DNA of 63,669 nt, the filler included, from Reclinomonas americana ATCC 50394 (lineage: Eukaryota), in NCBI GenBank assembly GCA_048213135.1. It is 12 parts of 12 records of this genome, joined end to end, with 100 filler letters (N's around TTAATTAATTAA, not from the genome) between each part and the next. Parts side by side here need not be neighbours in the genome. Positions count along the whole stretch, not along the records: positions 32,689 to 50,130 come from AFZH01020002.1; 11 more parts are not named here. One strand, written 5' to 3'. Both the position numbers and the translations under genes were made by a program. The notes beneath the pieces were generated by a model, which ran no database searches, was not told the origin of the DNA, and saw only the letters and a list, made by a program, of their open reading frames with translations. This document shows positions 30,519 through 63,533 of the stretch, one piece after another. The first letter of the stretch is position 1. Each line of letters begins with the position of its first letter.

Positions 30519-33500
30519 TTAAGCACGATCAACCTGAAACAAACACACAATCCGTGCGTACCATGTCAGCAGGTGGCAGGTACGACTGCTGCTGCTGCTG
30601 CTGTTGTTGCTGCTCGTGCTCGGCGTGAAGCAACGGCTCGCCTTGAATTTCGGACTGCGTCAGCAGGCGACCATCCGCCAACCCAATGGAAGGCGGCTGT
30701 TGCTGCTGTTGGGCGAACAACATCTCCTCCTCCTCCAAGTCCTCGGCTCCCAACAGCGGCGCGTTCGGTGGTCTGGCCACGTAGGAGTCCTGCGGGCCAA
30801 GGGCAGCACCAGCGGCAGCAGTAGCGCCACCGGCAGCGGCATGCGACCGAGCTGCCAGCGGTACCGCGCCTGGAGACACAGCATCCGGGAACGAGTCGGC
30901 AAACTCAAAATCGTCGAATGAGCCCGAATGCGCGACATCGACATCGGCACCGGCAGCACTGCTCTCCGCTGCTGGGCGCGCTGTTGCACGCTGTTGCTGC
31001 TGAGGCTTGGTTTGCGGAGATGGCATCGGCGACGGTCGCTGCAGCATACGGCTGCCCTCAACCGAAAAGATGACAGGCATTGGCACAAACTGCAACAACA
31101 CCAAGGTCAGCGAGTTGCAGAAGAAGAGGGCAGGGAAGGCTGACGCAAAAACATAGAGACAAACCGGCTGTGCGAATGCTGGTCTTGTGCCACGAACGAC
31201 TTGCGGTTGTGGTGCGGGCGGAGCAGGTGCAGGCGCAGGTGCTGCAGGCGCTTCTACTGGCTGCACAGGTCTCATCGGCACGTGTGGCGCCGGTCTGTTC
31301 ATGCCAACCCGCACTTCAGCCAACGGCAACACCATACTGTCGTCTTGCGGCGGCTGTGCGCGACGAACTGGGCCTGGGCGATCGCCTGGTGACGCGTCGC
31401 CAACGTGACGAGCCTGCAGAACAGGAAAAGGCGTGTCAATGAAAGTAAGAGAAAATACAGGACAGTAAAAGTGCACGAAACCACAGCGAGTCCAACGCCC
31501 TCCTCGGCCATATTGAACGATCCGTGCTGGTCCCATCGCATTCTATGAACGAGGTAAAGGTGAATGAAATAGAAGAATCGGAAGCACGACTTCATCGGTT
31601 GCACATACCCTGGGAAGCGATTGGCCAGTGCCGGTGGTACATAACTCGGGCTCGTGGGTACCACGCCGCTCGCCGTCATCATCATCGATGCGCTCACCGG
31701 CGACAGCATGTCGCGCGGGAACTGCTGTCGCAACTCGAATTCGGCGTCTGGATTCTGCTGCGCAAACGTGCTCAGGCTCTCCATCAACTCCTGGCCGCCA
31801 CTGTTGGCGGGCGGGATCCACTGCGGGTGGTTGGCGAGGAAGTTGATGAACGACTTTTCCATCTTGCCGTGGCGCGAGTGGCTGAGACGGCCGCCGTCGC
31901 CGCCGACTCGAGAACCAAACTGTGTGAATCAGCAGGTGCACAGTTATGAGAAAGGCAAGCATGGCAAAACAAAAATGGACACGGAATCAACGCACTCGCG
32001 GGTTGCCGTGGCGGTGGAAGTTGAAGGTCGAGAAGGAACACACGTAGCCGAGACCCTCCACCTCCACCGAGTTGTCGCGCACAAAGTCGACCATTTTCTC
32101 TAATGTGCGCAACCGCGTCAACCACAGCTCGGCAGCATTTTCAGAAAACAGGCAACTCACCGGCACTGTTGGGCATCGAGAACCAGAAAATGAGCGGCGT
32201 CAACACCACACTAGCCATCTCTTGGATGAACAACTCGACGCGGTAGCGGAAGAGCTCAGTAAACTGACGCAGAACCTGTCAATGCAAGCGAGACAGATGT
32301 GAGGAAGGCAGGAGCAAGAATTATCACAAGAATGCAGTGCCACACACACCTCGTGGCTGCCGGGCTGGAGACGCCACTGCTTCGGCACATAGTGCGTGTA
32401 GCTAATGACCTGCTTCAAGTACAGCTCGGGGAGGAACACAAACGACTCGTCGCCGACAGACTTGCGCAGCGCAGCGAGGCACGTGGCCAAGATCACCAAA
32501 TACCACGCCAGCGGTCGGTCATACAACTGTGCACAGACTCAGTCAGACGACACGAGCGCGATATGCCTGGCCAGAGACAGAGACACACNNNNNNNNNNNN
32601 NNNNNNNNNNNNNNNNNNNNNNNNNNNNNNNNTTAATTAATTAANNNNNNNNNNNNNNNNNNNNNNNNNNNNNNNNNNNNNNNNNNNNACCTCCAACCCC
32701 ATAAACATGGGTTCGTTGATGAGTGCAATGAGAATAAGAACGGCGGCGAGACCGCCGAGAATGAAGAGTGCCGCAGAGGAGATGGTGGACAGCAGGTGAT
32801 CGGGGTACTGGTCGACAAAGTTGCGTGCCGGCCGTGACGACATTTTCATGCGCTGCTCGAACACGTGCGGCAGCTCGTTGAATTCGCGGAACTTCCATCG
32901 CGCCAAGGGCGACCACGTGCGCGCTCCCATGGTGGCCAGCGACGACCGGAATTCCTGCGCCACAAGCTCAATCAGTCTTCCGCGCTCGCCACTCTCTCTC
33001 TCTATCCAATCGCTGCTCTCACCTCGAGGTAGCGGAACAGAAACTCGACAAACAGGTACACGATGATGAAGGGCGCCATCAGCAGGTTGACAAAGCCGAG
33101 CACCACAAATTCGGTCTTCAGCGCGCTGACAATGCCCTCGCGATCACGGCGGGCCAGCGCCTGCCGATCGAGCAACGAGCGCACAATCTTCATGAGATTG
33201 TATTCCAGCGATCGCGTGAGGATGCTGGTGTTGGAGAAGAACGGCAGCGGGATGTGTAAATCGAGCAAGTTCTTGTTGACCAGGCCAATCAAGTAATTCT
33301 GCTGGCGCATGATCCGGCTGGCGATATCTGTCAACGCGGGGGGAGAAGACAGTCAGCACGTGTCACAACACTGACTCCTCCACGCGCCGACTCACCCAGC
33401 GCCGTCTGCTTGCGCTGCAATGTGAGCTGCATTCGCTCCTGCAGCAACTCCAGATTGTGCGCCACCACATGCCACTCGACGCTCTGCACATCGGACTACT

Positions 33501-34471
33501 CACACGCAACAGTGGTCAACAAGACGACGCGTGAGAAGACACACACAGGTGCACGCAAGCGCAACATCAGTCATCTTCAAGTGTGTGCTGTAAAACGCTC
33601 GTGATCGACGCGCCGCCGCAATGGTTCCGATCGACAGCCACAACTTCCAGCCCCAAAACACCACAAATCCCAGTTCGAGTACGGCCACATACCACTGTGC
33701 CGCCTCCATGCTGTTCCCACGCACACACACACATGATGAGTGTGGACAACAACTCGGAGTCTAATCTGACGATTCTTCAAAGATCCTCCTCTGCTTTCGT
33801 GTGCGTGTGTGCTTTGCTGCGATCTCTCTCTGCGTGCGCGCGTGTGTGTGTGTAACGACTACAGTGCGTGTGAGCGGCAAACCTCCTGAACGGATGCTCG
33901 TGGATTTTACGCGCGTGTCGGAAACACTCGAGCGTGTCACACCGATTCAGCGCATCCCAGTCGACAAAGATGACCAGGAACGTGGTGAATGTGATCAAGA
34001 AGGCAATCGCTCTGTGTAAGAGAGAGCGCGCGCGCGTAAGTGAGTGAAACCGCACATCATTACAGTGTGAGTTGACGCAACAGCGACGACAGCACTTCGC
34101 TGAGCACGATACACCAGTAGCCCTTTCTCACATAGTACTGATACAACTAGGAAGACGAAGAAGACGACGATTCAAAGTGAGCATATGTAATCGGCGAAGA
34201 GAGAAGGAACAGACGTTACCTCCACAAAGAAATCATCGACATCGCCGGCGACCAATGGCGCCAATCGCTCATGTTCTGCCACCAGTGGAGCCGCGGCGGC
34301 GGCAGCAGAAGAAGAGGACGACGACGAGCGCACAGCTGCCAACTCCACATCGGCACCACTGGAGAAGAGCGAGGCGCCGGGCTCGACACCAAACAAACGC
34401 CGTGACGACGAGGACGACGACGACGCTGGCATAGAGCTGTCCTCGTGTTGAGGAAGGCGCACGTACGCCAT
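30519..34471 (-). CDS. ATG9: Autophagy-related protein 9 (lipid scramblase), multi-exon, crossing the linker at 32589
   Basis: DVDDFFVELYQYYVRKG, DIASRIMRQQNYLIGLVNK, LTRSLEYNL, GARTWSPLARWKFREFNELPHVFEQRM, THYVPKQW, VEGLGYVCSFSTF and GKMEKSFINFLANHPQW are hallmark ATG9 motifs. Confidence 0.95.
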
Positions 34472-34550
34472 AGTACGCGCGCGCGCAAAGAACGATACGA
34501 AAAACGAACAGAAATAGCTTAATCCGTCGATCGGTCTTTTGCTTTGTGTC

Positions 34551-35561
34551 ATGGAAGACGACGCGTTTGTGAGTCGCCTGGAGTGCGCTGGTGTGGAGGT
34601 GCTGTTGTATCGACCGGGTGTGTTGGTGGCGGTGAACAAACCGGCGGGAATGCTGTCGGTGCCGGGTGGTCGTCGTCATTGCGGCGATTGGCGATCGCGA
34701 CAGGAGCATTGGGCGGCGTGTTTGCAGCTGGAGAGCACGCGACAGCGCGTGTTGTTGTGTGTGGAGGGTGGGGATGGGTTGTGCTGGTGGCAGCGGTGTG
34801 TGGACAAGGTGGTGCGTGAGGCGGTGAATGTGCCGCGGCGTGCTGATAAGTTTGTGGCGAGCTGTGTGCGCGCGTGGAAGCGCGAGTTTGCGGCGGTGGC
34901 GCGGGAGGATGTGGAGCAGGTGGCGCGTGTGGTGTTTGATGTGTGCGATGAGTGCATGGCGATCATGGAGGAGGAGGAGGAAGAAGAGGAAGTGTCGGCA
35001 CTGTCGGTGTTGGAGCTGTGCGGGCGTCATGCACATGCAGTGCATCGGTTGGACATGGAGACGTCGGGTGTGCTGCTCGTGGCACTGGACGCACGTGTGG
35101 CGGCGGTGCTGTGCGAGCAGTTCCGGCGAGATGATTGCGTGCAGAAGACGTATGTGGCGGTGGTGGAGGGCGACGGCGGGTGGGAACACGGCCAGAGTGG
35201 CGTGTGTGAGCAGCCGATATGTGCCGAGCCTGAACGCCGGCCGCGGCAGCAGCTCGATGTGAGCGGCGGCAAACCCGCGGTGACACGGTGGGAAGTGCTG
35301 CAACGCGGCGTCGACAGTGCGACCACTCGGATGCGCCTGCAGCCGATCACGGGTCGAACGCACCAACTGCGCGTGCACATGGCGCTGGCTCTGCGACACC
35401 CTATCGTGGGAGACTCGCTGTATGGTCGAGCATCGGAGCGGTTGTTGCTGCACGCTGAAACGCTGGAGCTGTTTGATGTGCGTGAGGTGGCCAGTGGCTC
35501 CGGATGGGAGGTGGCACACGATGCCCCCCGGCTGCGTCTGGAAGCCGTTTGCCCTTTTTGA
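34551..35561 (+). CDS. RluA-family RNA pseudouridine synthase (RPUSD-like), single exon
   Basis: VNKPAGMLSVPG, catalytic HRLDMETSGVLL, KTYVAVV, GKPAVTRW, LQPITGRTHQLRVHM, HPIVGDSLYG, LLLHAETL. Confidence 0.95.
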   Translation: MEDDAFVSRLECAGVEVLLYRPGVLVAVNKPAGMLSVPGGRRHCGDWRSRQEHWAACLQLESTRQRVLLCVEGGDGLCWWQRCVDKVVREAVNVPRRADKFVASCVRAWKREFAAVAREDVEQVARVVFDVCDECMAIMEEEEEEEEVSALSVLELCGRHAHAVHRLDMETSGVLLVALDARVAAVLCEQFRRDDCVQKTYVAVVEGDGGWEHGQSGVCEQPICAEPERRPRQQLDVSGGKPAVTRWEVLQRGVDSATTRMRLQPITGRTHQLRVHMALALRHPIVGDSLYGRASERLLLHAETLELFDVREVASGSGWEVAHDAPRLRLEAVCPF

Positions 35562-35921
35562 TGGAACAACTGTACGGATGCAGAAGGCAGGCCGGCCGTG
35601 CGACTGACAATCTCCGCGTTCGGTAAATCACCGCCGCCATTCATTCCCTCCACCCTGTTTTTGCACCCGCGAGAGAGCAAAGGCAACTACAGCTCCCGCA
35701 CGACGATCAAGTCTGTTGTACGCAACAGCACTCCTCCCGCTGACGGCGCACGACAGGAGACACGACAGGTGTGTTTGTAGCGCGTCGTTGATTCTTGTCT
35801 ACTCGCTCGGCTCAAAATTGGCGTGGACGATCACAGGCTCAAGCGGGTGGGCATGCGAAGGTTCGCGAGGACGGAGGAGGGTGCAACTTGCACGGGATGC
35901 GTGGAGGCTGAAGCCGCAGCC

Positions 35922-38900
35922 ATGTCTGTCTCGTCGGCAATGGCGGCGGCGGCGGCGGCAGGAGCAGCGGCAGCAGCACCGTTCTCGGACGACCCCCAAC
36001 CTCAGCTCACCACGGACAACACGGAGACGGCTGCGCAACAACGCGTCTCGTACATAGAAGCACTCGCAATGATGTGCTATTGTGCTCTCTTTTACGCGTT
36101 GACCGCGCGCGACCAGCTGACGAAGGAAAAATGGCCAAGTTGCGTACCCGCAGATGAGAGAATGATCCTTCGATTTCTACCGAGTCACTGTATCCATATT
36201 TGTGTGTGTTTCTTCCTCTACTGACCCCCTGTCACTCCCAGTGTTTGTGATGAACATGCTGTTGGCACTGGTCAGTGCATTGTCATACTATGCCGTCAGC
36301 GGCGGGACTATGTTTGGAGTCCGTGGCTGGGGTCGATTTTTGACGATGTCGCCAAGTGTGCTGGAGACCAACACGGTGCGGACACGCACTGCGGCTGTGC
36401 GTTCTTCGCCCCTTGATGTACCCATGCACTGTGTGTGTTGTGTAACGTGCAGTCGGTAAACGCTCCGACAATAGCGCGTATCGGGGGCTTGCTCGGCCCG
36501 CTTCTGATGCAGTTCTTTCGACCGTCGCTGAGGTGAAATTTGGTCAACATTGGTGCTTTTCTCCTCACATCACTCACCGTCGTCAAACACTGCTCACATA
36601 GTGTGCACATCATTGGTCATGCACTGCTCGGCTGCACATTCTCTGTCTGGGTGTCCGAGAGAAAGTTTGTTGCGTCTCGGAAACCGATGTGCATGTGCGC
36701 TCTCGTCGACGTCGTCTGTGAAGCTGACGGCCCTTTGCGCACACAGTTGACACTGACGATGATCCTGCACATGATTGTCGGCTACTGGCGTACGCTCGCT
36801 TTGGGGTATTCGTGGGTGAGTACCCTGGCCGCAGTCACGGCGTTCATGGACGTGCTGAGATTCCCGATTTTTTGCTCTTCCACAACAAATAGGATACCGG
36901 CTTGGCCGTCACAATAATTCCACTGATTCTCGGTACCCGTGTGCTGGTGAGTATTCCCCGTCCCTGCCCGTGCAAGTGAGGCAGACTGGAAAAAGAAATC
37001 GGCTGACTTGTCCTGCTGCGTGCGCAGAACACGTACTACGAGACACACGGAATTGTGGCGCACTTGCGGCAAGCGAACCAGATGCTGCAGGAGCTGAACT
37101 CGCGTCTCGAGTGTGCCAACACATTGTTGGACGAGAAGGCCGCAGCACTGCAGGAGGCCATTGAAGACAAGGATCTGTTTCTGAGCAAGGTGAGACTGAG
37201 CGCCGCGAATTAGCAGCAGCACATGTGGTGCGGAAACTCACCCTGTGTTGCAGTGCTCGCACGAATTGCGACAGCCATGCTTCGGCATCATGTCGGCACT
37301 GGAGAGCTACACGTCTCTGTCGAAGCACAGCGATCCTGCAATCGCCGAGGCCATTTCATCGTCGCCCAGCATTGAAAAGATTGCACGATACGATGATTCT
37401 TGTGTTGCGTGGACTGTCTTGTAGGCGTGTGTCTTTCTGGGTCATCCGAGTGTTCTCACTCCATTGTCAACTGTATGCAGGTGCACGACGGACTGCAGGC
37501 AACGCGGACATTGCTGGCTCTGTTGAATGGTCTGTATCTGTGTGCTTGATATGTTCATCGCGCATCTTGCACTCACGTCGTTGATCGTCGGCAGAGCTGT
37601 TGGATCTGATGAAGCAAAAGCGAATGACCATTAATGTGAAACTGGCTCCCGAGTCACTGGTGGAGGTGTTGGCGTCGGGAGTACGTTGTATGAGGCACAT
37701 GGCACAGAGGCAAGTCAACTGAATGCAGCAGCTTGAGTGATTGATTGCAGCTCACGATGAATATGACCTTGTGTGCACAGTGCTGGTCTCGGCCTGTCAC
37801 TGCGAATTGGTCCGATTCTCATGTACTATCACCGACGTGGTGTGCGGACGTGGATGGATCGACTCCGAATCATTCAATGCCTCAGCAACCTGCTCAGCAA
37901 TGCCATCAAGGTTTGTCGTCTCGTGTGTGTTTTTCGTGTCATTAGTTCTGAGACTCACGTGTGAGTGGTAGTTCACCGAGGCTGGTTCAGTGTCTGTGAC
38001 TGCCGACCTGTGCACGCGCACCAAAGCCGATCCAGGGGAAATATCACAGCACGGCATCTGGGGAGGTTGCGTTTGCGCCCACCTCGTCTTGAGGTTGACA
38101 CCAGACTGACGTGGTGTCGCTCCGCAGAACCGGAGTACATGTACTTGCCCATGTATGACATGCAGCAGTTCCTCGTGGCTCCGACACGCTTCGCGTCCGA
38201 GGTACAAGAGCACCCCTCCGAGTACTACGTGCGCGTGTGTGTGGCCGACACAGGTCAGGGAGTGTCGTTAGAGGATGCGACACACTTGCTGGAGCCATTC
38301 TACCAGAGTTCCACCAGTCGAACGCGACATCAGTTCGCCGGCACGGGTCTTGGTCTGACACTGGTGCGCGACATGTGCCGTACGCTGTGGGATGGCGATC
38401 TGTGGTGCGTACTGCGGTGGAGGCGACTTGTGTTCGAGTGCGTCGGGATGTTCACCGACGATGGTTGCAGGTTCGAGACTCAAGCTGGCATCGGATCGCG
38501 GTTCTACTTTTCCTTCCCCTACAAGCCTGCATCATCGTCGCCGTTGCGTTTCTTCTTAGATGTACTTACTGTCTCGTATGTTTCCTTGACAATTGAGAGC
38601 AGCGGTGCCGACGTGGCAGCCACCTCCGAGACACCACAGAATTCCGACGCACAACAGGCCGCCACCGTTGAGACCAAGAAGTCGACAGAGCATGTGACGC
38701 CAGGTGCGCCCGTTCAGGCCCTCCCTGCGACCAGCACGCCGCCACCGCCGGTGCGCCAACGACCACAGCTGTCGTGCGTGATTGTCGATGACAGTCGCGT
38801 GGTGGTCAAGGCACTCGAGCGGCTGTGCGTGTCGCACCCAGTTGAGTGCGCCGTGTAGTGCTTCTGGTGGTTACCTGGTGTAACACAGAAGCTGACTGCG

Positions 38901-39916
38901 ACACAGATGCTGGAGGTGCGAGTGGACGAGTCATTTCCGGACGGCAGACCGTTCCTCGACTGGCTCCAACTACGACTCGACTCGTACAGTGCGAGGCGTG
39001 AAGAGAAAGGCGAGATGGCGAGCTCAATGACGTTGCCGGATGTGATCTTCTTGGATATGCACCTGCAGCGAGTGCATGGAAAGGAGACGATGGAGGCGAT
39101 CAGCAACATGTGTCGAGCGTATCGAGTTCACCGGCGACCGCTGACGGTGCTTATGAGTGGCGACGCCGTGTGTGTCGTTCCGCGCTCACCTGGTTTGTCC
39201 CCAGTCCTGTGCGCCGGTCGCCAGTTGTCCACCGTTACTAAATCTACACACAAACAGAGGTTGAAGATGATGGACCTGCATTTGTGCTGCAAAAGCCGAC
39301 TCCGAGGGTGAGTCGTCGTTGTGCGGTGATTGATAGCTTGCGAGTGCGAAAATTGCTGAGTTGGGTGTTGCAGACGGCTGTGCATCAGCTGTTGACTGCG
39401 GTCGCGGTGCGGCGAGGCATTCTTCCGCAATCTCATCCTTTCGAAATCGACTCGCCGCCGCTGATGACCGGTGGCACCCTGTCGCGTCGCACATCGAACT
39501 CTGCGCGATCTTCGGCAACTCCAGCGCGTTCATCGCCCCTGCATCACTCGAGGACAGCCACACTTCAGCAGCATCGACCGCCGCCAGACCCCACATCCAA
39601 ACCATCAGTGCCGTGGCTCAAGACGTCTCCGTCATCGTCCTCCACACCTATCCTTGGCGATGTGGCCGCGCTGCTGTCGCCCACTGCGATGCACTCGAAG
39701 TCGCCTTTGTCGCACTGTGCAACTCCAGCAAAGCAGAAACGGGTGGAGGACGCTGCTCGTATTGCCACTGAACTGGACCTGCCGTCATTGTCGCCACACT
39801 CGCTGATGAGCACGGTCCTACTCTACGACGGTGATGGTTGGTCGTCTCACAGCAGCAACGGCGACAGCAGCGCCCCTCCAGTTTTCTCGAGTGCACGAGC
39901 CTCGCCGATTAGTTAA
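35922..39916 (+). CDS. Membrane-bound hybrid sensor histidine kinase, copy A (multi-TM - coiled coil - HisKA - HATPase_c - REC)
   Basis: H-box FLSK|CSHELRQP, N-box QCLSNLLSNAIK|FT, G1 VADTGQG, F-box EPFYQ, G2 GTGLGLTLVR; receiver IVDDS...DVIFLDMHL...LMSGD...LQKP. An alternative in-frame ATG lies at 35853. Confidence 0.9.
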
Positions 39917-40184
39917 GATCGATGCGTGTGTGCGCGAGATAGATAGACAAACAACTAATGGTAAATGTACATTGTTTTGCTTGCACGAAGGAATCGACGA
40001 GAGTTGAGAGAAGAGTCGCCCGAGTAGGCAGTCAGCAGAATCAAACCTGTTTCATGCTTCCATTGGGTGCGCAGACACAACACCCTGCATCACCAATTCG
40101 GGAGGAGAGCGGAGAGAACGAGCCCCCCAGACGTGTGCTCTCGCTGTTTCTCGACACCTGCGCGCGCTCACACGTATTGGTGAC

Positions 40185-43100
40185 ATGCTGTCCACTGCCG
40201 CTAGCGAAGACCGTGACACCTCAGTGACAGCGACGCAGTCCTTGCAAGAGGCGGCCACATCGATGTTGCCATCGGAGGACTCTGTTCCTCTGAGAGCTGA
40301 TGCGGATGTCGACGACGATGCAGAGATGGCGGAGGAAGAGGAAGAAGAGGAGGAGGAGCACGGGGAAGGAGAGGAGCCATTGTTGCTGCCGGCGACAACA
40401 AGTCAGTACTTGGAAGGCGTTTGTGTCACAGTCGCCGCCTGTGTGTGTGCCTGCTGCACAGCGTTGCACTGGTGGTTCACGGAGCACAGTCTCATGAGTT
40501 ACATGCACTCTTCGTGCTGCTGCTGCCTCATGTGTGTGATGCGCTGACAGTGTTGCATTGTGATGACAGTGCTGTTCTTATTGTTGAGTACGCTGGCGGC
40601 GTTCACTGTGTGGTTTGTCAAGTTGGCGGGTACATGGTGGCTTTCGCCGCACGCGTGGCGGAAGATGATTTCGATTGCAGGAGGCCTTCGTGCCGTAATC
40701 GAGGTCAGTGAGGCATTACGAGTTGTCTTCGCTGCGACCTCACTTCTCATGTTCTGCAACACCAACAGATTATCCGTGCTCGCCGATGGACGTACATGCT
40801 GCTCGGTGTCACTGCAAACGTCATTGTGACTGCCTTCGTGCCGGCGATAAGGTGTGTGTTGGTTATCACTGTTGTTGTAGTTGGTGCACCAGTGAAAAGT
40901 TGACTTGTGAGTGCAGCTTGACACTGCTTACCTCGATTATTATGTCGGGCATTGTCACCACCTGGCTGTACCCCTCGCCGTCACTGGTTTGTGTGCTCCT
41001 TGTCCCTTCTGCAATCGTCGTCGCCATCGTTGACAAGTGCTTGCCTCTATGCACAGTCGGCATTGAACCTTTTGCTCAATTCTGCCGTCAACTGCTACAA
41101 GGCGTACTCATTCGGCCTATCACTGGTCTGTCTGCGTCCGTGCTTTGCTTCCGTGCGCGTTGCGTGCTGATTGGATGGGCATGAAGGATATGTGTTTTTT
41201 CGCCACCATCCAGCCACTGCTGCTGGGTTTGCGAGCATATGTTGCGTGTGCTGCGACTGCACTGCCATCACTCCTCTCCTCCATGTTTACTGTGCTACAG
41301 AACTCGTTTGGCGATGTGCACACGGCGATTGAGGACTTGCGTGTTGTCAACACTCGCATTCACGACACCAACACGAAACTGGAGTGTGCCAACACGTTGC
41401 TCACGGAGAAGGCTGAGGCACTCACCGAGGCCATTGAAGACAAGGATCTGTTTCTGAGCAAGGTGAGACCAAGTGCTGTGCAGGAGCAGCAGCACATGTG
41501 GTGCATCAACTCACTCTGTGTTTGCAGTGCTCGCACGAGTTGCGACAGCCTTGCTTCGGCATCATGTCGGCACTGGAGAGCTACACGTCTCTGTCGGAGC
41601 ACAGCGATCCCGCAATTGCCGAGGCCATCTCGTCGTCACCCAGCATCGAAAAGATTGCACGATACGATGATTCTTGTGTTGCGTGGACTGTCTTGTAGGC
41701 GTGTGTCTTTCTGGGTCAACCGAGTGTTCTCACTCCATTGTCAACCCCATGCAGGTGCACGACGGACTGCAGGCGACGCGAACACTGCTGGCTCTGTTGA
41801 ATGGTCTGTATCTGTGTGTTTGATGTTTTCATCGTGCTTCTTGCCACTCACGTCGTTGATCGTCGGCAGAGCTGTTGGATCTGATGAAGCAGAAGCGAAT
41901 GACCATCAATGTGAAACTGGCTCCCGAGTCACTGGTGGAGGTGTTGGCGTCGGGAGTACGTTGTATGAGGCACATGGCACAGAGGCAAGTCAACTGAATG
42001 CAGCAGCTTGAGTGATTGATTGCAGCTCACGATGGAAATGACCGTGTGTGCACAGTGCTGGTCTCGGCCTGTCACTGCGAATTGGTCCGATTCTCATGTA
42101 CCACTACCCACGTGGTGTGCGGACGTGGATGGATCGACTCCGGATCATTCAATGCCTCAGCAACTTGCTCAGCAATGCCATCAAGGTTTGATGGCAGAAT
42201 ATGAACTTGATTGCAGCAGTTCTGATTCTCACTTGTGAGTTGTTAGTTCACCGAAACCGGCTCCGTGACTGTAACTGTCGTTCTGGCCACTCGCACCAAG
42301 GCCGACCCAGAAGAGCTGGCACGCCGAGGCATCTGGGGAGGTTTCGTTTGTACTCACTCTGATACGAGATTGACACCGGACTGACGAGGTGCCGCTCCGC
42401 AGAACCGGAGTACATGTACTTGCCCATGTATGACATGCAGCAGTTCCTCGTGGCTCCGACACGCTTCGCGTCCGAGGTACAGGAGCACCCCTCCGAGTAC
42501 TACGTGCGCGTGTGTGTGGCCGACACAGGTCAGGGAGTGTCGCTGGAGGATGCAGCACACTTGCTGGAGCCATTCTACCAGAGTTCCACCAGTCGAACGC
42601 GACATCAGTTCGCCGGCACGGGTCTTGGTCTGACACTGGTGCGCGACATGTGTCGTACGCTGTGGGATGGCGATCTGTGGTGCGTATCTTCGAGAAGGTG
42701 GGGAACCGAAGGATACTTATATATGATTGCAGGTTTGAGTCGAAAGTCGGCGTCGGATCACGGTTCTACTTCTCCTTCCCCTACAAGCCTTCATCGTCAT
42801 CGTTTCGTCATTTTATTGTGTACTTGTGGTCATATCCTCCTGTTTGGTTTCTGACTTTGGACATAATGCAGCGACAGCAGCTCCGAGACGCACCATGACG
42901 CCAGTTTGCAACAGGCAGTTGTCGGTGAGACGGCGATGTCAACCGAGAATGTGACGCAAGCCAAGCCCGTTCGGGTCCACTCGCCTTTGCCGCAGCAGGC
43001 CAGTGCCCTACCGTCGCCGATGAACCAACGACCACAGCTGTCGTGTGTGATTGTCGATGACAGTCGCGTGGTGGTCAAGGCGCTCGAGCGGCTGTGTGTG

Positions 43101-44125
43101 TCGCATCCAGTTGAGTGTGCCGTCTGGTGGTTGTCTGGTGTGACACAGAAGCTGACTGCGACACAGATGCTGGAGGTGCGAGTGGACGAGTCATTTCCGG
43201 ATGGCCGTCCGTTCCTCGACTGGCTCCAGCAACGCCTCGACACGTACAGCGCAAAGCGTGAAGAGAAGGGTGAATCGGCGTGTTCGACAATGCTGCCGGA
43301 CGTGGTGTTCTTGGATATGCACTTGCAGCGAGTGCACGGGGCAGAGACGATGGAGGCGATTAGCAACATGTGTCGGGCGTACAGAGTTCATCGACGACCG
43401 CTGACAGTGTTGATGAGTGGTGACGCCGTGTGTGTTCTCCCACAGTCACAAGGTGCGGCTTGTGACGCATTTCTTTGTTGCTTGTTGCGTTCTCGCTGTT
43501 GATAGCCTTCCCACAGAGAGTGAAGACGACGGACCTGCATTTGTGCTGCAAAAGCCGACCCCGAGGGTGAGTCGTCGTTGTGCGGTGGTTGTCTCCGAGT
43601 TTGCTGACTTGGGTGTTGCAGACGGCCGTGCATCGCTTGCTGACTGCAGTCGCTGTGCGGCGAGGCATTCTCCCGGGTATGCACCACTGCACCGAGATCG
43701 ACTCGCCGCCACCGTTGGCCGTGAACAGCAATACCACGGTGGTTCCACCGTGTCCGCCGCCCACAGCACCAGTGCGATCGCCACCAAAGGCATTCCGTTG
43801 GGTTCCATCAAACAACACACCTCTGACGACGGCACCACTGCAGCAGCAGCAACAACGTCCTCGACAACGACCAAGATTACTGCGTTCTTCGTCGTCGTTC
43901 ACATCGTCGGTGGCCGCAGGCGAAGCCAGCACTTCCGAGTCCGCAGCGGAACATCACACTGCCACTCGTGCGCATGCTGCCAGAGTTGCCGCCGAGCTGG
44001 ATCTGCCGTCGGCGTCTCACCATTCACTGATTACCACGGTTCTTGCGTATGGTGTTGGCGAGTCGTCGTCGCACAGTAGTGGCAGTGCAAGTAGCAAGCG
44101 GGGGGGAGAGATGAGCGTGACTTAG
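40185..44125 (+). CDS. Membrane-bound hybrid sensor histidine kinase, copy B
   Basis: Same H/N/G1/F/G2 boxes and REC motifs as copy A; acidic N-terminus followed by a hydrophobic multi-TM region; stop TAG at 44125. Confidence 0.9.
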
Positions 44126-44334
44126 TGAACCTGTGTACATGGTGAAAAGTGCGCTCCCCTTGTTGTTTGAGCTTGGGGGTAAAACAAGGGGAATCGATGG
44201 AGGAGGGAAGTATTCGATATCCGTATTGCGCACCCGCGCACACCCAATTTAGGAGACTCAGGAGAGCGAAGAGAACCTGTCTCCCGGCAGCGTGCTCTCT
44301 GTCGCTGTTTCTCAGCACTGCACGTAAGGCGACC

Positions 44335-47300
44335 ATGCTGTCCGCTCGTGCGGATGATGGCCGCGAAAACACTGGTGGAGTATCGACGATGTCGGCAGCC
44401 GGAGTGGGCAAATTGAATTTGCCGTCATCGCGTTCGAGGGCTGAAGTGGCCGGCGACGATGCAGAGATGACAGAGGAGGAGGAAGAGGGCGAGGAGGAGG
44501 AGGAGGAGGAGGAGGCCGACGACGACCCACCGCTGGCGCCAATAACCACCAGTCAGTATTTGGAGAGCTTGTGTGTCACAGTCGCCGCCTGCGCGTGCAT
44601 CTTCGGCGGCGTGCTGCACTGGTGGCAGACCGAAGGCTCTGTGACAAGTTGCGTACACGCACGCACACACACACGCTCTCTCTCTCTCTCTCTCTTATCA
44701 TTCATTCTCTCACCACGTGCCACGGAATCCAGTGTTGGTTGTGTGGTTGGGACTGCTGGCGGCCGCCACTGTGTCGTTTGTCAAGTTGGCGGGTGCTTCG
44801 TGGCTTTCGCCATACGCATGGCAACGGATGATGACGATTGCGGGTGGTCTTCGTGCCGGAATCGAGGTCTGCACGATGACGAATCACTCGCTGATGGTCC
44901 TCGCCCTCACGCATTGTGTGTGCAGAGGATCCGCGCACGGCGATGGTTGTATGTGCTCCTGGGCCTACTTGCGAACGCGATCATCATTCTCTCCATGCAT
45001 CGATTGAGGTGTGACGCCTTGCGCGCCATCCAAGTCCAGAAAGTGCAACACCCTTCGTCTTAGTGAGTCTGCTGTTGCACACAGTTTCGTTCTTATTGGC
45101 TCGATCCTTTTGTCGGGCATTGTCACAACCTGGTTGTACCCCTCGCCGTCACTGGTTTGTAGTCCCTTCTGCCAATCTCGATGTCAGCATCGTTGACAAC
45201 CCTGCGTGACAAGATTGCGTGGAGTCTGCTGCTCAACTCTGCAGTCAACTGCTACAAGGCGTACTCATTCGGCCTTTCACTGGTCTGTCTGCGTCCGTGC
45301 TCTGCTTCCGTGCGCGTTGCGTGCTTATTGAATGGGCATGCAGGATATGTGTTTCTTCGCCACCATCCAGCCACTGCTGCTGGGTTTGCGAGCATATGTT
45401 GCGTGTGCTGCGACTGCACTGCCATCACTCCTCTCCTCCATGTTCACTGTGCTGCAGAACTCGTTTGGCGATGTGCACACGGCGATTGAGGACTTGCGAG
45501 TTGTCAACACTCGCATTCACGACACCAACACGAAACTGGAGTGTGCCAACACGTTGCTCACGGAGAAGGCCGAGGCACTCACCGAGGCCATCGAAGACAA
45601 GGATCTGTTTCTGAGCAAGGTGAGACCAAGTGCTGTGCAGGAGCAGCAGCACATGTGGTGCATCAACTCACCCTGTGTTTGCAGTGCTCGCACGAGTTGC
45701 GACAGCCATGCTTCGGTATCATGTCGGCACTGGAGAGCTACACGTCTCTGTCGAAGCACAGCGATCCTGCGATCGCCGAGGCCATTTCGTCGTCACCTGG
45801 CATCGAAAAGATTGCACGATACAACGACTCTTGTGTTGCGCGAAGCGTCTTGTCGTCTTCGGCATCATCCGAGTGTTCTCACTTCATGATCAACCCCATG
45901 CAGGTGCACGACGGACTGCAGGCAACGCGGACATTGCTGGCTCTGTTAAACGGTCTCTCTTTGTTTGTTCTGACGTGTTCGTCGTGCTTCTTGCCACTCA
46001 CGTCGTTGATCGTCGGCAGAGCTGTTGGATTTGATGAAGCAAAAGCGAATGACCATCAATGTGAAACTGGCTCCCGAGTCACTGGTGGAGGTGTTGTTAT
46101 CAGGCGTGCAATGTATGAGGCACATGGCGCAGAGGCAAGTCAACTGAATGCAGCAGCTTGAGTGATTGCAGCTCACGATGAAAATGACCGTGTGTGCCCA
46201 GTGCTGGTCTCGGCTTGTCACTGCGAGTTGGTCCGATTATCATGTACCATCACCGACGTGGTGTGCGGACGTGGATGGATCGACTCCGAGTCATTCAGTG
46301 CCTCAGCAACCTGCTCAGCAATGCGATCAAGGTTTGCTGTCCTAATGGGAATATGGTTGCAGCGATTGCGAGACTCATGTGTGAGTTCAGTTCACCGAAA
46401 CTGGCTCGGTGGCGGTGACTGTCGTTCTGGCCACTCGCGCAAAGGCTGATCCAGACGAGTTGACACGGCGTGGCATCTGGGGAGGTAGCGTTTGAGTCCA
46501 CCTCGTTCTCGAGATTGACGCCAGACTGAAGTGGTGCCGCTCCGCAGAACCGGAGTACATGTACTCGCCCTTGTATGACATGCAGCAGTTCCTCACGGCA
46601 CCAACACACTTCGCATCCGAGGTGCAAGAGCACCCCTCCGAGTACTACGTGCGCGTGTGTGTGGCCGACACAGGTCAGGGAGTGTCGCTGGAGGATGCGG
46701 CACACTTGCTGGAGCCATTCTACCAGAGTTCCACCAGTCGGACGCGACATCAGTTTGCCGGCACGGGCCTCGGTCTGACGCTGGTGCGCGACATGTGCCG
46801 TACGCTGTGGGATGGTGATCTGTGGTGCGTATTGCGGTGGAGGCGACTTGTGTTCGAGTGCGTCGGGATGTTCACCAACGATGGTTGCAGGTTCGAGACT
46901 CAAGCTGGCATCGGATCGCGGTTCTACTTTTCCTTCCCGTTCAGACCGACGTCGTCGCCGTTGCGTTTTCTCCTCTGCTGTGCTTGCAGTCTCGTTTATT
47001 TTCTTGACGATCGAGAGCAGCGGTGCCGACGTGGCAGCCACCTCCGAGACACCACAAAATCCCGACACGCAACAGGCCGCCACCGTTGAGACGGCAAAGT
47101 CGACAGAGAATGTGACGTCAGCCGAGCCCGTTCAGGCCCTCCCTCCGTCGCAACAGGCGACCAGCACGCCGCCACCGCCGGTACGCCAACGACCACAGCT
47201 GTCGTGCGTGATTGTCGATGACAGTCGAGTGGTGGTCAAGGCGCTCGAACGGCTGTGTGTGTCGCATCCAGTTGAGTGCACCGTCTGGTGGTTGCCTGGT

Positions 47301-48337
47301 GTGACACGGAAGCTGACTGCGACACAGATGCTGGAGGTGCGAGTGGACGAGTCGTTTCCGGATGGCGGGCCGTTTCTCGACTGGTTCCAGCAACGCCTCG
47401 ATGCGTACGGCAAGAAGCGCGAAGAGGAGGGAGAGACGGCGTGTTCGACAATGCTGCCCGATGTGATCTTCTTGGATATGCACTTGCAGAAAGTGCACGG
47501 GGAGGAGACAATGGAGTCGATCAGCAACATGTGTCGAGCGTATCGAGTTCATCGGCGACCGCTGACGGTGCTGATGAGTGGTGACGCCGTGTGTGTCGTT
47601 CCGCGCTCACTGGGTTCGTCCCTCTCACGTGTGTTTCCTGTTGTTGCAAGTTGTCTGTGTTGACAGCCGTTCCACAGAGAGTGAAGACGACGGACCTGCA
47701 TTTGTGCTGCAAAAGCCGACCCCGAGGGTGAGTCGTCGTGTGCGGTGATTGATCACTTCCTTGGGCAGGGATCAGCTGACTTGAGGTGTGTTGCATGCTG
47801 CAGACGGCTGTGCACCAGGTGTTGACCGCGGTCGCGGTGCGGCGAGGCATTCTTCCGCAATCGTCACATTCGCTTGCCACCGAGTCGCCGCCCGTGGCGG
47901 TCGGAAGCGTGCAATCACAGCGTGTGCCACGCGCGGTTCCACTGCGACCGCAGCCGAAAGCGGCGCCAGCAAACAAGGCCAAGGCAACCACCACAACCAC
48001 TTCGAGACAACACCGCCCACGATCAGCGCTGCATGCACAATCGCAGTCGCTGCGGATGCGGTCAAGGTCGTCGCGCTCATCTGCCTCATCGTCGTCGCTC
48101 GCCGGAGATACACGCACTCCCGCTGCGGAGCATTGGAGTGCCACTCACGTGCAGGCGGCCAGGGTGGCTGCCGAACTGGACCTGCCGACCGTATCGCAAC
48201 GGACGCTGATGACGACAGTCCTAGCCTGCGGCATTGGAGACTCTTCGTCGCACAGCAGCAGCAGCGGCAGCGTCAACAGCGCTCCTCCTCATTCAGTGCA
48301 CACGGGACACGAAAGAGGAGAGATGAATATTGCGTGA
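44335..48337 (+). CDS. Membrane-bound hybrid sensor histidine kinase, copy C
   Basis: Same exon structure and catalytic motifs as copy B; stop TGA at 48337. Confidence 0.9.
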
Positions 48338-48598
48338 AGCCGGCGCCGGTGTCGTCGGTGTGACAGCAAATGTATGGCGGTGGCTGTGTTCTTGAATGTT
48401 GCGCTCCTCTTCTTTTGTGTGGATGTGCGCGCCCGCGAGGTGCAAGTGCGCAAGAAAACGATTCGCCACGACGACGACGAAGCCGGCGACGGATTTGGAA
48501 AATTCAATTGCTCACTGTGTGTTTGTTGCACGCAAGCACGCGTGAGCGCGTAAAAGGGGTTTGCGTGTGTGCTGGCATTCACAGTGTGTGTGTCAACA

Positions 48599-50130
48599 AT
48601 GTCGGCAGCGAGCGGTGACGACGGTGGCGCAGCACCAACACAACCTCTGCCCTCCCCTCCCTCTCCACCAGCTCGCTCCTCCTCCGCCTCCTCTCTCTCC
48701 TCCAGAGAGGAGCGCAGAGCACGAGGCGCGGCAGAGGAGGAGAGGATAGTGGTGGAGGAGAAAATGGAGAAGGAGGAGGAAACGACTGTGAACACCAGTC
48801 AGTACATGGAGGGCATCTGTCTCACCATTGTCTCGTTCTTCTGCGCGCTCGGCAGTCCACTGCACTGGTGGCTTGTGGAGGGCAACCTCGCCAGTTCCGT
48901 ACGCGAGCACAGCGCCAGTGTGCGTATTCCTCACTTCCTCTCTCTCACACATGCGCACGCACGCGCACACACGCACACAGTGTTCCTGTTCCTCATGGGC
49001 GCTCTGGTGGTCATTACTGTGTGCTTTGTCAAGCTCGCGGGTGCCTCGTGGATGTCACCACGCGGGTGGTATCAGATGATATCAATTGCCGTCGGCCTGC
49101 GCGCCGGACTTGAGGTCTGTGAGCTCGTGAGATCTCTGCTCGCTCACTCACTCATTTGTGTACCGCACACCACAGACAATTCGCGCACGCAGATGGATGT
49201 ATGTGGCGATGGGATTGGTGGTGAACGGCACAGTCGTTGTATTGGTGCCAAGATTGAGGTGGTGTCTTCTTTTTTTCTTTGCTTCCTTCCTCTTCTGCTC
49301 GACTGTGACGTGGAGACTCACCGTGAGTCTGATTGGCGCAGCTTGGTGCTGCTCTCATCGGTACTGCTGTCTGGTATCATCACCACATGGCTGTATCCGA
49401 CACCGACGCTGGTGTGCACCATTTGTATTCTGCGCAACAAGATGTCGATTGTGGCTGATCGCGCGTGTTCTCTGTACGCAGACGGCGTGGAACATGCTGC
49501 TCAATGCAGCGGTGAACTGTTACAAGGCGTACTCTTTTGGCCTGCCGCTGGTCTGTCTGCGTCGCTGGCTCCGAGCGTGCAGCCGGTCGCGCAGCTCACC
49601 AATCCTTTATGCAGGACATGTGTTTTTTTGCCACCGTGCTGCCACTGTTGCTGGGTCTGAGGGCATTCGTTGCGTGTGCAGCGGGAAGGGGCGTCAGCTG
49701 TCGAACAACTTTCCGCCCGGGCTCACAACTTGCGCGCGCAGAACTACTTTGGCGATGTGTATGCCATGATCCAGGACTTGCGCGAGTTTATTCATCGCAT
49801 CAACGACACCAATACGAAACTCGAGTGCGCCAACACGTTGCTCACCGAGAAGGCCGAGGCGCTCACCGAGGCCATCGAGGACAAGGATCTGTTCCTCAGC
49901 AAGGTGAGACCCGGCGCAGTGAGTCAGCAGTGGGTGGATGATGTGAGCTCACACGTGCTGGCCGTTGCAGTGCTCTCACGAGCTGCGGCAACCGTGTTTC
50001 GGTATCCTGTCGGCACTCGAGGCGTACACGCCCCAGACAACGTCGACGCCGCACAAGTTGTCCCTCACAGTGCAAAATGAGTCTTGCGTTGCGTGCATGG
50101 GCTTGGGGAGAGAGGGGGGGAGGGGCTTCA
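48599..50130 (+). CDS. Membrane-bound sensor histidine kinase, copy D; truncated by the linker just after the H-box
   Basis: TM region homologous to B and C (SQYMEG, LHWW, FVKLAG, TTWLYP, NCYKAYSFG), then KDLFLSK|CSHELRQPCFGILSALE. Confidence 0.85.
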
Positions 50131-50285
50131 NNNNNNNNNNNNNNNNNNNNNNNNNNNNNNNNNNNNNNNNNNNNTTAATTAATTAANNNNNNNNNNNNNN
50201 NNNNNNNNNNNNNNNNNNNNNNNNNNNNNNGAGAGAGAGAGAGTGATGTGGCGATGGAGTGACTAATCGTCTTTTGTTGTGCCAG

Positions 50286-50682
50286 CCATTCCTCCCGCGC
50301 AAATCACACCGTCGACACTAAACGTGCCGACTGCCGGCTTGTCGTCGGGAGCATCGGTCGGCACAGTGTCTACCACATCAGGCACTGGATTTACATTCAC
50401 GTTGGCGGCGGCGAGTGGCAGCAACAACAATGCGCTGTTCACCATCGCCACACCGAGCACCGGTGCTGTTACGTTGGCGTCGGCGTTCACGTGGCCACAG
50501 GCAGTGACAAGTCGCACATTGGAGGTGGTGGTGTCAGATGGCACGTACTCGGCGACACAGTCGCTGACGATCACGGTGACGAACTCGTGTCCTGGAAACT
50601 GCAGCAGCCACGGCACGTGTGCTGCGGCGACGGGAGTGTGTACGTGCACTGGAGGATATTTGTCGTCTGCGTGCGGTGAGTT

Positions 50683-50719
<37 letters not shown>

Positions 50720-63464: not shown

Positions 63465-63533
63465 CTGCAAGGGAGGGGGAAGGGGGGAGGGACATATTAG
63501 GGAAGGGAAAGGGAAAGGGAGAGAGATGTGAGC

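Follow-up and report, generated by a model that had tools for sequence, protein, structure and literature searches.

A tandem array of predicted hybrid histidine kinases in Reclinomonas americana with an apparently uncatalogued six-helix membrane domain

Free-living protists have many membrane-bound histidine kinases which surveys describe only by multiple hydrophobic helices without a known domain, and which raise the question of what is sensed. We describe one locus of Reclinomonas americana ATCC 50394 (assembly GCA_048213135.1), studied within a window of 63,669 nucleotides in which separate contigs are joined by N spacers. One contig (C4535, AFZH01020002.1) carries four head-to-tail genes, A to D, which their motifs predict to be eukaryotic hybrid histidine kinases (HisKA-HATPase_c-REC), each with a six-helix membrane domain ahead of the kinase. 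With slightly better than even confidence, we propose that A to D are dimeric receptors of a protist-restricted family, which would detect a small lipophilic or amphipathic cue inside the membrane and feed a common His-Asp relay.

Four genes and their membrane domain

We assembled the gene models by coordinates from candidate splice sites. The four genes lie on the plus strand with starts spaced by 4263, 4150 and 4264 bases (Table 1), in agreement with the roughly 4.1–4.3 kb read in the first-pass annotation of this DNA. The frame of D is open across 8 exons up to the contig end at 50130; the array may continue beyond D, since the contig ends inside this gene. All modelled junctions are GT/GC-AG (116/116 in both haplotype contigs), a count that is not independent support because junctions were chosen to preserve frame. 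Independent support comes from the second haplotype, which keeps the junctions, from the same phases in two further kinases of this genome (E and H) and in a gene of another species (X), and from a further gene, I, which has transmembrane helices TM3-TM6 in one exon. This single exon aligns to exons 3-5, their introns appearing as gaps. The donor of intron 10 is GC in A, B and C (37710, 41985 and 46135) and GT in the second-haplotype A, and gene X has a GC donor at intron 6. A pseudogene reading of the copies was rejected, given open frames in both haplotypes and ratios of nonsynonymous to synonymous divergence (dN/dS) below 0.3.

Each protein begins with an acidic or low-complexity N-terminus, the membrane domain (exons 1-6) and a coiled coil (exon 7); HisKA and HATPase_c come next, and a linker leads to REC and a tail of low complexity. 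As first annotated, the coiled coil and HisKA are found in each copy and HATPase_c and REC in A–C, the phospho-His of SHELRQP is present in A–D and the phospho-Asp of FLDMH in A–C. We read these features in the gene models, and Pfam searches of single open frames match HATPase_c (PF02518, E 1.9e-12, A frame), Response_reg (PF00072, E 1.8e-4) and, at only E 0.15, HisKA (C frame). The N, G1, F and G2 boxes of HATPase_c are intact in the A–C models, as are the acidic pair, phospho-Asp and Lys of the receiver. The 54-residue coiled coil is presumably signalling-helix-like. Every family member seen has Gln at position +4 from the phospho-His (HE[LIV]RQ; 37254-37280 and equivalents), where the usual residue of the H box is Thr or Asn; this Gln may bear on phosphatase activity. 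A separate, conventional, intron-bearing PAS-type histidine kinase lies on contig C513 (about 19700-22700, minus strand), with PAS-like segments and an SHELRTP H box carrying the usual Thr.

The averaged hydropathy of the membrane domain, about 170 residues long, shows six peaks and one weak stretch. Of the six to seven hydrophobic segments first described, six are thus helices, and the supposed seventh is one amphipathic Trp loop. This loop 2 is about 30-33 residues long and combines a Trp-rich amphipathic segment with 2-7 Lys/Arg; because Lys and Arg are concentrated there, we place it in the cytoplasm, with the N- and C-termini both inside. The outer loops 1, 3 and 5 have about 7, 3 and 9 residues, too short to fold, so that geometry leaves only intramembrane sensing. 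No CHASE/Cache/PAS/GAF-type input of at least 100 residues is present in these loops or between TM6 and the H box, where there is only the coiled coil.

An AlphaFold2 model of TM3-TM6 of gene I (predicted local distance difference test score, pLDDT, 70) places four helices at the expected borders, matching the exon-sized helices and the boundaries in B; a single-sequence run (pLDDT 57) was left unused. With the TM3-TM6 model, whose packing is of low confidence, Foldseek returned nothing at E <=0.001. The best VIA-align match (Z 9.1, root-mean-square deviation 3.4, 90 aligned) was 14-3-3; TPR-like and further generic helical bundles ranked next, a common arrangement.

We then compared the domain across eight members (A–D, E, H, I and X), and seven positions are invariant in 8/8. 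Five of the seven lie on the inner side (a TM1 Glu, a loop-2 Trp, a Trp at the end of TM4, an Arg at the end of TM6 and the next Asn). The outer two are the Gly and Asp of the TM5-TM6 hairpin, whose outer end holds the best-conserved patch, K/R/H-A-Y-x-x-G-x-x-D. The TM5 Lys occurs in 6/8 members (Arg in A, His in I) and a TM1 His before the Trp pair in 4/8, and across the eight members there is no conserved His or Cys for a metal or haem. Conservation among six deep members reaches 50% in loop 5 and 33% in TM6, compared to 10-17% in loop 1, TM2, TM3 and TM5; within B–D only, the outer half is less conserved than the inner (56.5 vs 67.7%). No internal repeat between helix hairpins was detected.

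Identity in the membrane domain is 60-73% among B–D and 16-31% otherwise, with A, the most divergent sensor of the array, at 16-21% to B–D. The sequence motifs first listed for the membrane region of B–D are indeed present, but most of them stem from recent duplication and conversion, only seven positions being invariant in all eight members. Copy A has none of these motifs and has the same domain, with the same six intron phases and 71 bits in a profile from which it was left out.

This pattern of conservation bears on what the helices do. They might be a mere membrane anchor, with the input elsewhere and the paralogues differing in location or expression. TM2 and TM3 are poorly conserved (12-16% among deep members), which would fit an anchor, and the case for sensing by the helices comes from sequence, not function. 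We nevertheless give this explanation very little credence: seven invariant residues, several of them charged, persist in members 20-30% identical and in two species, and no other input domain lies between TM6 and the H box. The domain might instead sense the membrane itself (thickness, fluidity or stress) or a partner membrane protein, by mechanisms such as those of DesK and PilS, and without a small molecule. Such a sensor agrees with the absence of an outer ligand-binding loop, with the cytoplasm-facing position of 5/7 invariant residues beside an amphipathic, Trp-rich interfacial loop, and with the lack of a conserved His or Cys. We regard it as unlikely, however, since a physical sensor gives little reason for purifying selection to maintain eight or more sensors that are 16-31% identical, since conservation is highest in a polar patch where TM5-TM6 reaches the outer side, and since similarity to 6TM_PilS is absent.

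Table 1 Features of the kinase array, in positions of the whole window.
Feature	Position	Strand	Remarks
Contig carrying the array	32689..50130		C4535 (AFZH01020002.1)
Copy A, 18-exon hybrid histidine kinase, 919 amino acids	35922..39916	+	coordinate-built model; intron 16 acceptor uncertain
A, six-helix membrane domain, exons 1-6	36039..36946	+	invariant Glu codon 36057; Arg replaces TM5 Lys
Copy B, 18-exon hybrid histidine kinase, about 944 amino acids	40185..44125	+	coordinate-built model
B, six-helix membrane domain	40398..41240	+	exon 1 TM1; exon 2 TM2 and cytoplasmic Trp loop; exons 3-6 one helix each
B, exon 7, 54-residue coiled coil linking TM6 directly to the H box	41301..41462	+	protein identical to C exon 7
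B, HisKA/DHp, exons 8-9	41528..41803	+	phospho-His codon 41534 (CSHELRQP)
B, HATPase_c, exons 10-14	41870..42801	+	N, G1, F, G2 boxes intact; family-specific insertion before G1
B, linker and receiver domain, exons 15-17	42872..43566	+	acidic pair, phospho-Asp (codon 43314), Ser, Lys-Pro present
Copy C, 18-exon hybrid histidine kinase, 958 amino acids	44335..48337	+	His codon 45691, Asp codon 47475
Copy D, membrane domain, coiled coil and H-box exon	48599..50130	+	His codon 49977; contig end cuts intron 8

Relation to known sensors and spread of the family

The first-pass annotation could not match the membrane region to CHASE, ethylene-binding, rhodopsin, MASE or PAS/GAF inputs. This holds for MASE1, ETR1_N, rhodopsin and CHASE/PAS/GAF, MASE7 being compared by one member. 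Scans of the membrane exons against Pfam and NCBIfam, those of gene I that are uninterrupted (TM1-2 and TM3-6) among them, returned no meaningful match, although single divergent half-domains limit the power of such scans; with the same limited power, the gene I exons gave no hidden Markov model (HMM) match to MASE2-6 and 8-12, MHYT, 7TMR-DISM_7TM or cyclase anchors.

We compared the family directly with fetched members of candidate families: 6 CqsS/LqsS-like sequences (from 9 cqsA-like loci), 11 of 6TM_PilS, 10 of ETR1_N, 10 of MASE1 and 2 of HisKA_7TM. Profile–profile comparison by hhalign gave probabilities of 0.07-0.8% for these five families, inside the range of shuffled sequences, compared to 96.7% for a within-family control (B-C-D against A-I). 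The eight-member profile scored at most 4.0 bits on members of the tested families, and a family profile reached at best 8.0 bits on 2035 bacterial open frames and proteins. The value for 6TM_PilS (PF25323) was 0.07%, with a best HMM score of 4.0 bits. HisKA_7TM (PF16927), MASE7 (PF20967) and 5TM-5TMR_LYT (PF07694) reached at most 2.1 bits, with only 2, 1 and 1 members compared, and scans for MASE7 in 26 cyanobacterial genomes and for MASE6 in 111 gammaproteobacterial genomes recovered no members for comparison.

In design, the nearest known receptors are those for alpha-hydroxyketones, CqsS, LqsS and JqsS, which likewise have six short helices, short outer loops, a direct link to the His kinase and a necessarily intramembrane mode of sensing. 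CqsS and LqsS are described as receptors with six helices and short loops in which lipophilic autoinducers are bound within the membrane (PMC4821796, PMC3376566), a precedent that counts in favour of the proposed ligand sensing. The two groups differ in several respects: there is no detectable homology (hhalign 0.16-0.29%, shuffles up to 0.81%; best HMM score 2.7 bits), the TM1-loop motifs of the six fetched CqsS sequences are absent from the array family, loop 2 of the array family is much longer, and its conservation peaks at TM5-TM6 and not at TM1-TM3. CqsS/LqsS are the closest working model by analogy, not a family assignment.

Other comparisons are more distant. Ethylene receptors (ETR1_N, PF25487) resemble the array genes as eukaryotic hybrid kinases with an intramembrane ligand site, which in the array family is only predicted. 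They differ in having three helices, a conserved Cys-x3-His and usually a GAF domain, where the array family has six helices, no conserved Cys or His and no GAF; hhalign gave 0.12%, and 10 members scored at most 2.8 bits in either direction. An ethylene-type copper site was rejected, the Cys-His being present in B only. Rhodopsins have seven helices and an invariant retinal-binding Lys in the last. A microbial rhodopsin or seven-helix reading was likewise rejected, as the domain has six helices and a Lys that sits in helix 5 and varies (6/8), and Pfam scans show no rhodopsin match. The MASE1 (PF05231) kinases which PMC6324907 describes in early plants and brown-algal viral inserts share an integral-membrane input on a eukaryotic kinase; MASE1 is about 280 residues long, and hhalign gave 0.5-0.8% (0.78% with 10 members, shuffles up to 1.2%), with one member at 8.6 bits on reverse search.

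The closest likeness by description is to unnamed protist kinases. The same survey counts 70 kinases in Tetrahymena and 24 in Naegleria (groups II-IV), most with several hydrophobic helices, the Tetrahymena set mostly without a known N-terminal domain, which is ascribed to rapid expansion. It lists similar multi-helix kinases in Capsaspora (most), Thecamonas (half), Vitrella, Micromonas (MpusiHK2/3) and Guillardia (HK3/5/8/10) (PMC6324907). These share with the array genes HisKA-HATPase-REC behind several helices without a recognised domain, and lineage-specific growth; the likeness is one of description only, the word "tandem" being absent from the main text of that survey and its supplement giving no motif match. 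Judging by these comparisons, the kind of receptor is already known, and the six-helix domain, which we delimit, align and show in two species, is apparently uncatalogued. In the literature searched (titles and the openings of abstracts, subscription papers being outside), we found no description of this domain or of conversion in a kinase array.

The domain could still be a remote member of a described group, either a far-diverged CqsS/LqsS, class III adenylate-cyclase anchor or MASE domain, or the same as the unnamed inputs of Tetrahymena, Naegleria, Capsaspora, Thecamonas or Micromonas. We take this as a serious contender, if a somewhat less than even one; it is compatible with the mechanism that we propose, but there would then be no new family. 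In its favour, the short-helix, short-loop design is the same as in CqsS and the cyclase anchors, whose clusters are themselves interconnected only at 20-25% identity (PMC4821796), many protists have multi-helix kinases without a named domain (PMC6324907), and searches of large libraries would miss relatives as distant as A, I and X. The shuffle-range profile comparisons with five bacterial families argue against it, as do the longer cytoplasmic loop 2 relative to the six CqsS-like sequences and the uninterrupted gene I exons without a Pfam or NCBIfam match.

Within the genome, further kinases of the subtype are E (C6307), F (C637/C1774), G (C11222/C11204, core only), H (C291) and I (C278/C3972), giving a lower bound of at least 9 loci, 4 of them in tandem. 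The membrane domain is complete in 7 own-genome loci, and F shows the last two helices. Receiver-domain ends of the same subtype occur on the contig fragments C6224, C6309 and C13245, which are probably the C-termini of genes G and E. Gene I (C278, minus strand, L063:5645-5989) is without four of the membrane-domain introns, and its pre-H-box intron interrupts the His codon. In A–E, H and X this intron falls between Lys and Cys, 7 bases further upstream, so that an intron slide is possible.

A metagenome scan confirmed 3/577 stretches, of which one is a complete homologue, X (JADMIO011126974.1), and the other two have no trace of the membrane domain. Gene X has the same six membrane-domain introns (phases 1,0,2,0,0,0) and belongs to another species, since its neighbouring primase gene is 53% identical to that of our genome. 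When each of the eight members is left out in turn, it scores 54-208 bits against a profile built from the remaining seven, compared to at most 10 bits for shuffled copies of I (298/300 scored).

Wider searches were negative within their limits. Of 280 candidates, a search with the HATPase exon returned 15 matches; these align to part of the query at 35-51% identity, and none is a close relative. The TM3-TM6 alignment found 0/8000 scored candidates at E up to 10 and, in 301 gammaproteobacterial genomes, 4 matches at E <=0.01, about the number expected by chance. The H-box alignment gave 0/814, and an H-box pattern confirmed 0/79 metagenome and 0/22 viral stretches. A profile search of 1.84 billion representatives returned 0 matches, a weak result since the query profile misses A and I and gives X only 15.7 bits; in simulations, queries that contain introns failed to recover relatives less than about 30% identical. 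Sequence searches of the PDB gave nothing relevant. Amino-acid permease fragments found in the ESM Atlas for D exons 1-2 (0.90, 154 shared features) were rejected as a weak match from an intron-containing frame, and exon 2 of gene I gave no usable match there.

The first-pass annotation had inferred a lineage-specific receptor family with a possibly new ligand-sensing domain, expanding like a chemoreceptor cluster. A lineage-restricted family unmatched to the tested families is what we find; ligand binding and a new fold stay predictions. The family has grown, but modestly, and its sensors are under purifying and not diversifying selection.

Divergent sensors on a shared kinase core

Next, we asked whether the copies are separate genes. 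A second contig, C4423, is colinear with the array contig over 17,271 columns at 92.1% identity and carries a full A-B-C-D set in matching order; it is thus the other haplotype, and both contigs terminate at the same base. Copies A–C inside one contig are 83-85% alike. The copies are thus not haplotypes of one gene.

Alleles are closer in exons than in introns: 2543/2739 vs 984/1175 for A, 2695/2817 vs 929/1070 for B, 2750/2859 vs 969/1093 for C and 972/984 vs 488/502 for D. In the membrane domain the allelic dN/dS is 0.29 for A, 0.12 for B, 0.24 for C and 0.07 for D; the sensors are under purifying selection and are not hypervariable. Bacterial chemoreceptor and NLR-type receptor sets also join divergent sensors to a conserved signalling part; unlike these, the array family is small, without hypervariability and with sensors under purifying selection.

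The kinase core appears to have a different history from the sensors, the core of A being nearly identical to those of B and C. Between A and B, the membrane domains are 20% identical with a synonymous divergence (dS) of about 1.6, as opposed to 92% identity and a dS of 0.19 in HATPase. The tree of exons 8-10 groups by haplotype, A with B (0.994) and A2 with B2 of the second haplotype (0.976), whereas the copies cluster by gene in the trees of exons 2-5, 11-14 and 16-18. Comparison of A2 with B2 shows 100% identity in introns 8 and 9, where the two alleles of A are 68 and 85% alike. In the array contig, B and C are 93-98% alike in introns 5-7. Gene conversion between neighbours thus appears to homogenise the kinase core and to leave the old sensors.

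The same mosaic could be produced by the assembly, if near-identical repeat reads had been mixed between copies. A2 and B2 have a 349-base stretch in common that differs at a single base (149 + 199 identical bases), and cross-talk in assembly or polishing could add to the conversion signal. As the source of the whole mosaic we consider an artefact distinctly improbable, because introns 8-10 of A and B in the array haplotype are 91-96% alike and not identical, because intron 6 of B and C is 97% and 100% alike in the two haplotypes, and because the A/B core is about 92% identical in protein in both haplotypes, compared to 41-50% to E, H and X, with exact tracts below 200 bases.

The assembly comprises 108 Mb in 16,441 contigs, bacterial contigs among them. 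Heterozygosity is high, the haplotypes being 96-98% identical in flanking genes and 92% across the whole contig, and they are assembled as separate contigs, so that gene counts are often doubled. Upstream of copy A (32691-35558) lie ATG9 (minus strand) and an RluA-type pseudouridine synthase (34518-35558, plus strand), head to head; these neighbours indicate that the array contig is nuclear DNA of an intron-rich eukaryote. The RluA-type gene is intronless, which is unusual for this genome. The next contig of the window (50263-53369) encodes a large surface protein with tandem beta-rich units of ~100 residues and an EGF-like module (Pfam EGF_2, E 5e-4 to 1e-3) after every unit. The beta-rich unit has no Pfam match, and we take it to be cadherin-like. 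Further contigs carry an RsfS-family protein (1217-1714), a HECT ligase (5193-5987) and a GH20 hexosaminidase (62612-63496).

Output and proposed signalling

Finally, we looked for partners of the kinases. Eukaryotic hybrid kinases as a rule signal through an HPt relay (PMC6324907, PMC6944256; phosphorelay background in PMC6944256 and PMC4758236). The fragmented genome was searched exon by exon, a procedure by which a short, intron-split HPt is easily missed. An HPt profile gave 2 matches among 4 candidates, both bacterial (the first within a chemotaxis operon, the second on a bacterial contig of megabase size), and no eukaryotic HPt. Two HPt motif patterns gave 6 matches (control 3) and 153 (control 229); with only 2/153 inspected, the loci read hold nothing HPt-like. 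Candidates at C355, C3148, C32 and C140 were read and rejected as not HPt. A REC profile scored 52/138 candidates, all of them uninterrupted full-length matches and putative receivers.

The kinases might then signal without HPt, phosphorylation of their own receiver together with the low-complexity tail directly controlling the binding of a eukaryotic effector. Both the bacterial origin of the profile matches and the outcome of the motif patterns are in keeping with such an output, as is purifying selection on the tail of about 170 residues in A–C (allelic dN/dS 0.14-0.29). Given the ease with which an exon-wise search of a fragmented genome overlooks an intron-split HPt, the few second-pattern matches inspected and the usual presence of an HPt relay in eukaryotic hybrid kinases (PMC6324907, PMC6944256), we judge this output to be improbable.

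Our proposal of an intramembrane receptor with a common relay is as follows. Its observed components are the architecture, the intact catalytic motifs, the topology by charge and loop length, the selection and the mosaic; among its support we also count the genome's conventional PAS-type kinase with SHELRTP. The proteins would act as dimers, and the bundle would take up a small lipophilic or amphipathic molecule in its outer half, close to the K/R/H-A-Y-x-x-G-x-x-D patch, with the variable TM1-TM3 side determining specificity. The invariant residues of the cytoplasmic side (TM1 Glu, loop-2 Trp, TM4 Trp, TM6 Arg and the next Asn) would couple binding to the coiled coil. The change would pass via TM6 and the coiled coil to the H box, switching autophosphorylation of the His and transfer to the protein's own Asp. 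As conversion would keep the core alike and the sensors different, several inputs could converge on one output, most likely a His-Asp phosphorelay.

Several observations weigh against this proposal. The six-helix domain has no homology to CqsS or to any other tested ligand-binding membrane sensor, and the role as a small-molecule receptor is a prediction from sequence. Outer and inner halves are equally conserved among deep members (23.5 vs 23.9%), so that a variable outer pocket leaves no general signature. The gene I model, in which four of the six helices are modelled, has a predicted template-modelling score of 0.39, and its helix packing is unreliable. To these we add the near-identical stretch of A2 and B2 and the purely bacterial matches of the HPt profile.

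As a long shot, the array may represent a new six-helix receptor fold of one protist lineage, forming a small chemosensory repertoire in which ancient sensors (e.g. for lipid-like signals of prey bacteria or kin) sit on one core kept by conversion, with an HPt-free output.

For the wider question of protist histidine kinases, one such input domain is now delimited, with an eight-member alignment, seven invariant residues, a candidate pocket and occurrence in two species. The weight of this finding is limited by the small size of the family and by its relation to the Tetrahymena and Naegleria sets, known by description only. The alignment makes a profile search of other protists and a ligand screen with chimeric receptors straightforward, and old sensors on a converted common core suggest how a eukaryote may widen its inputs without rewiring its output.

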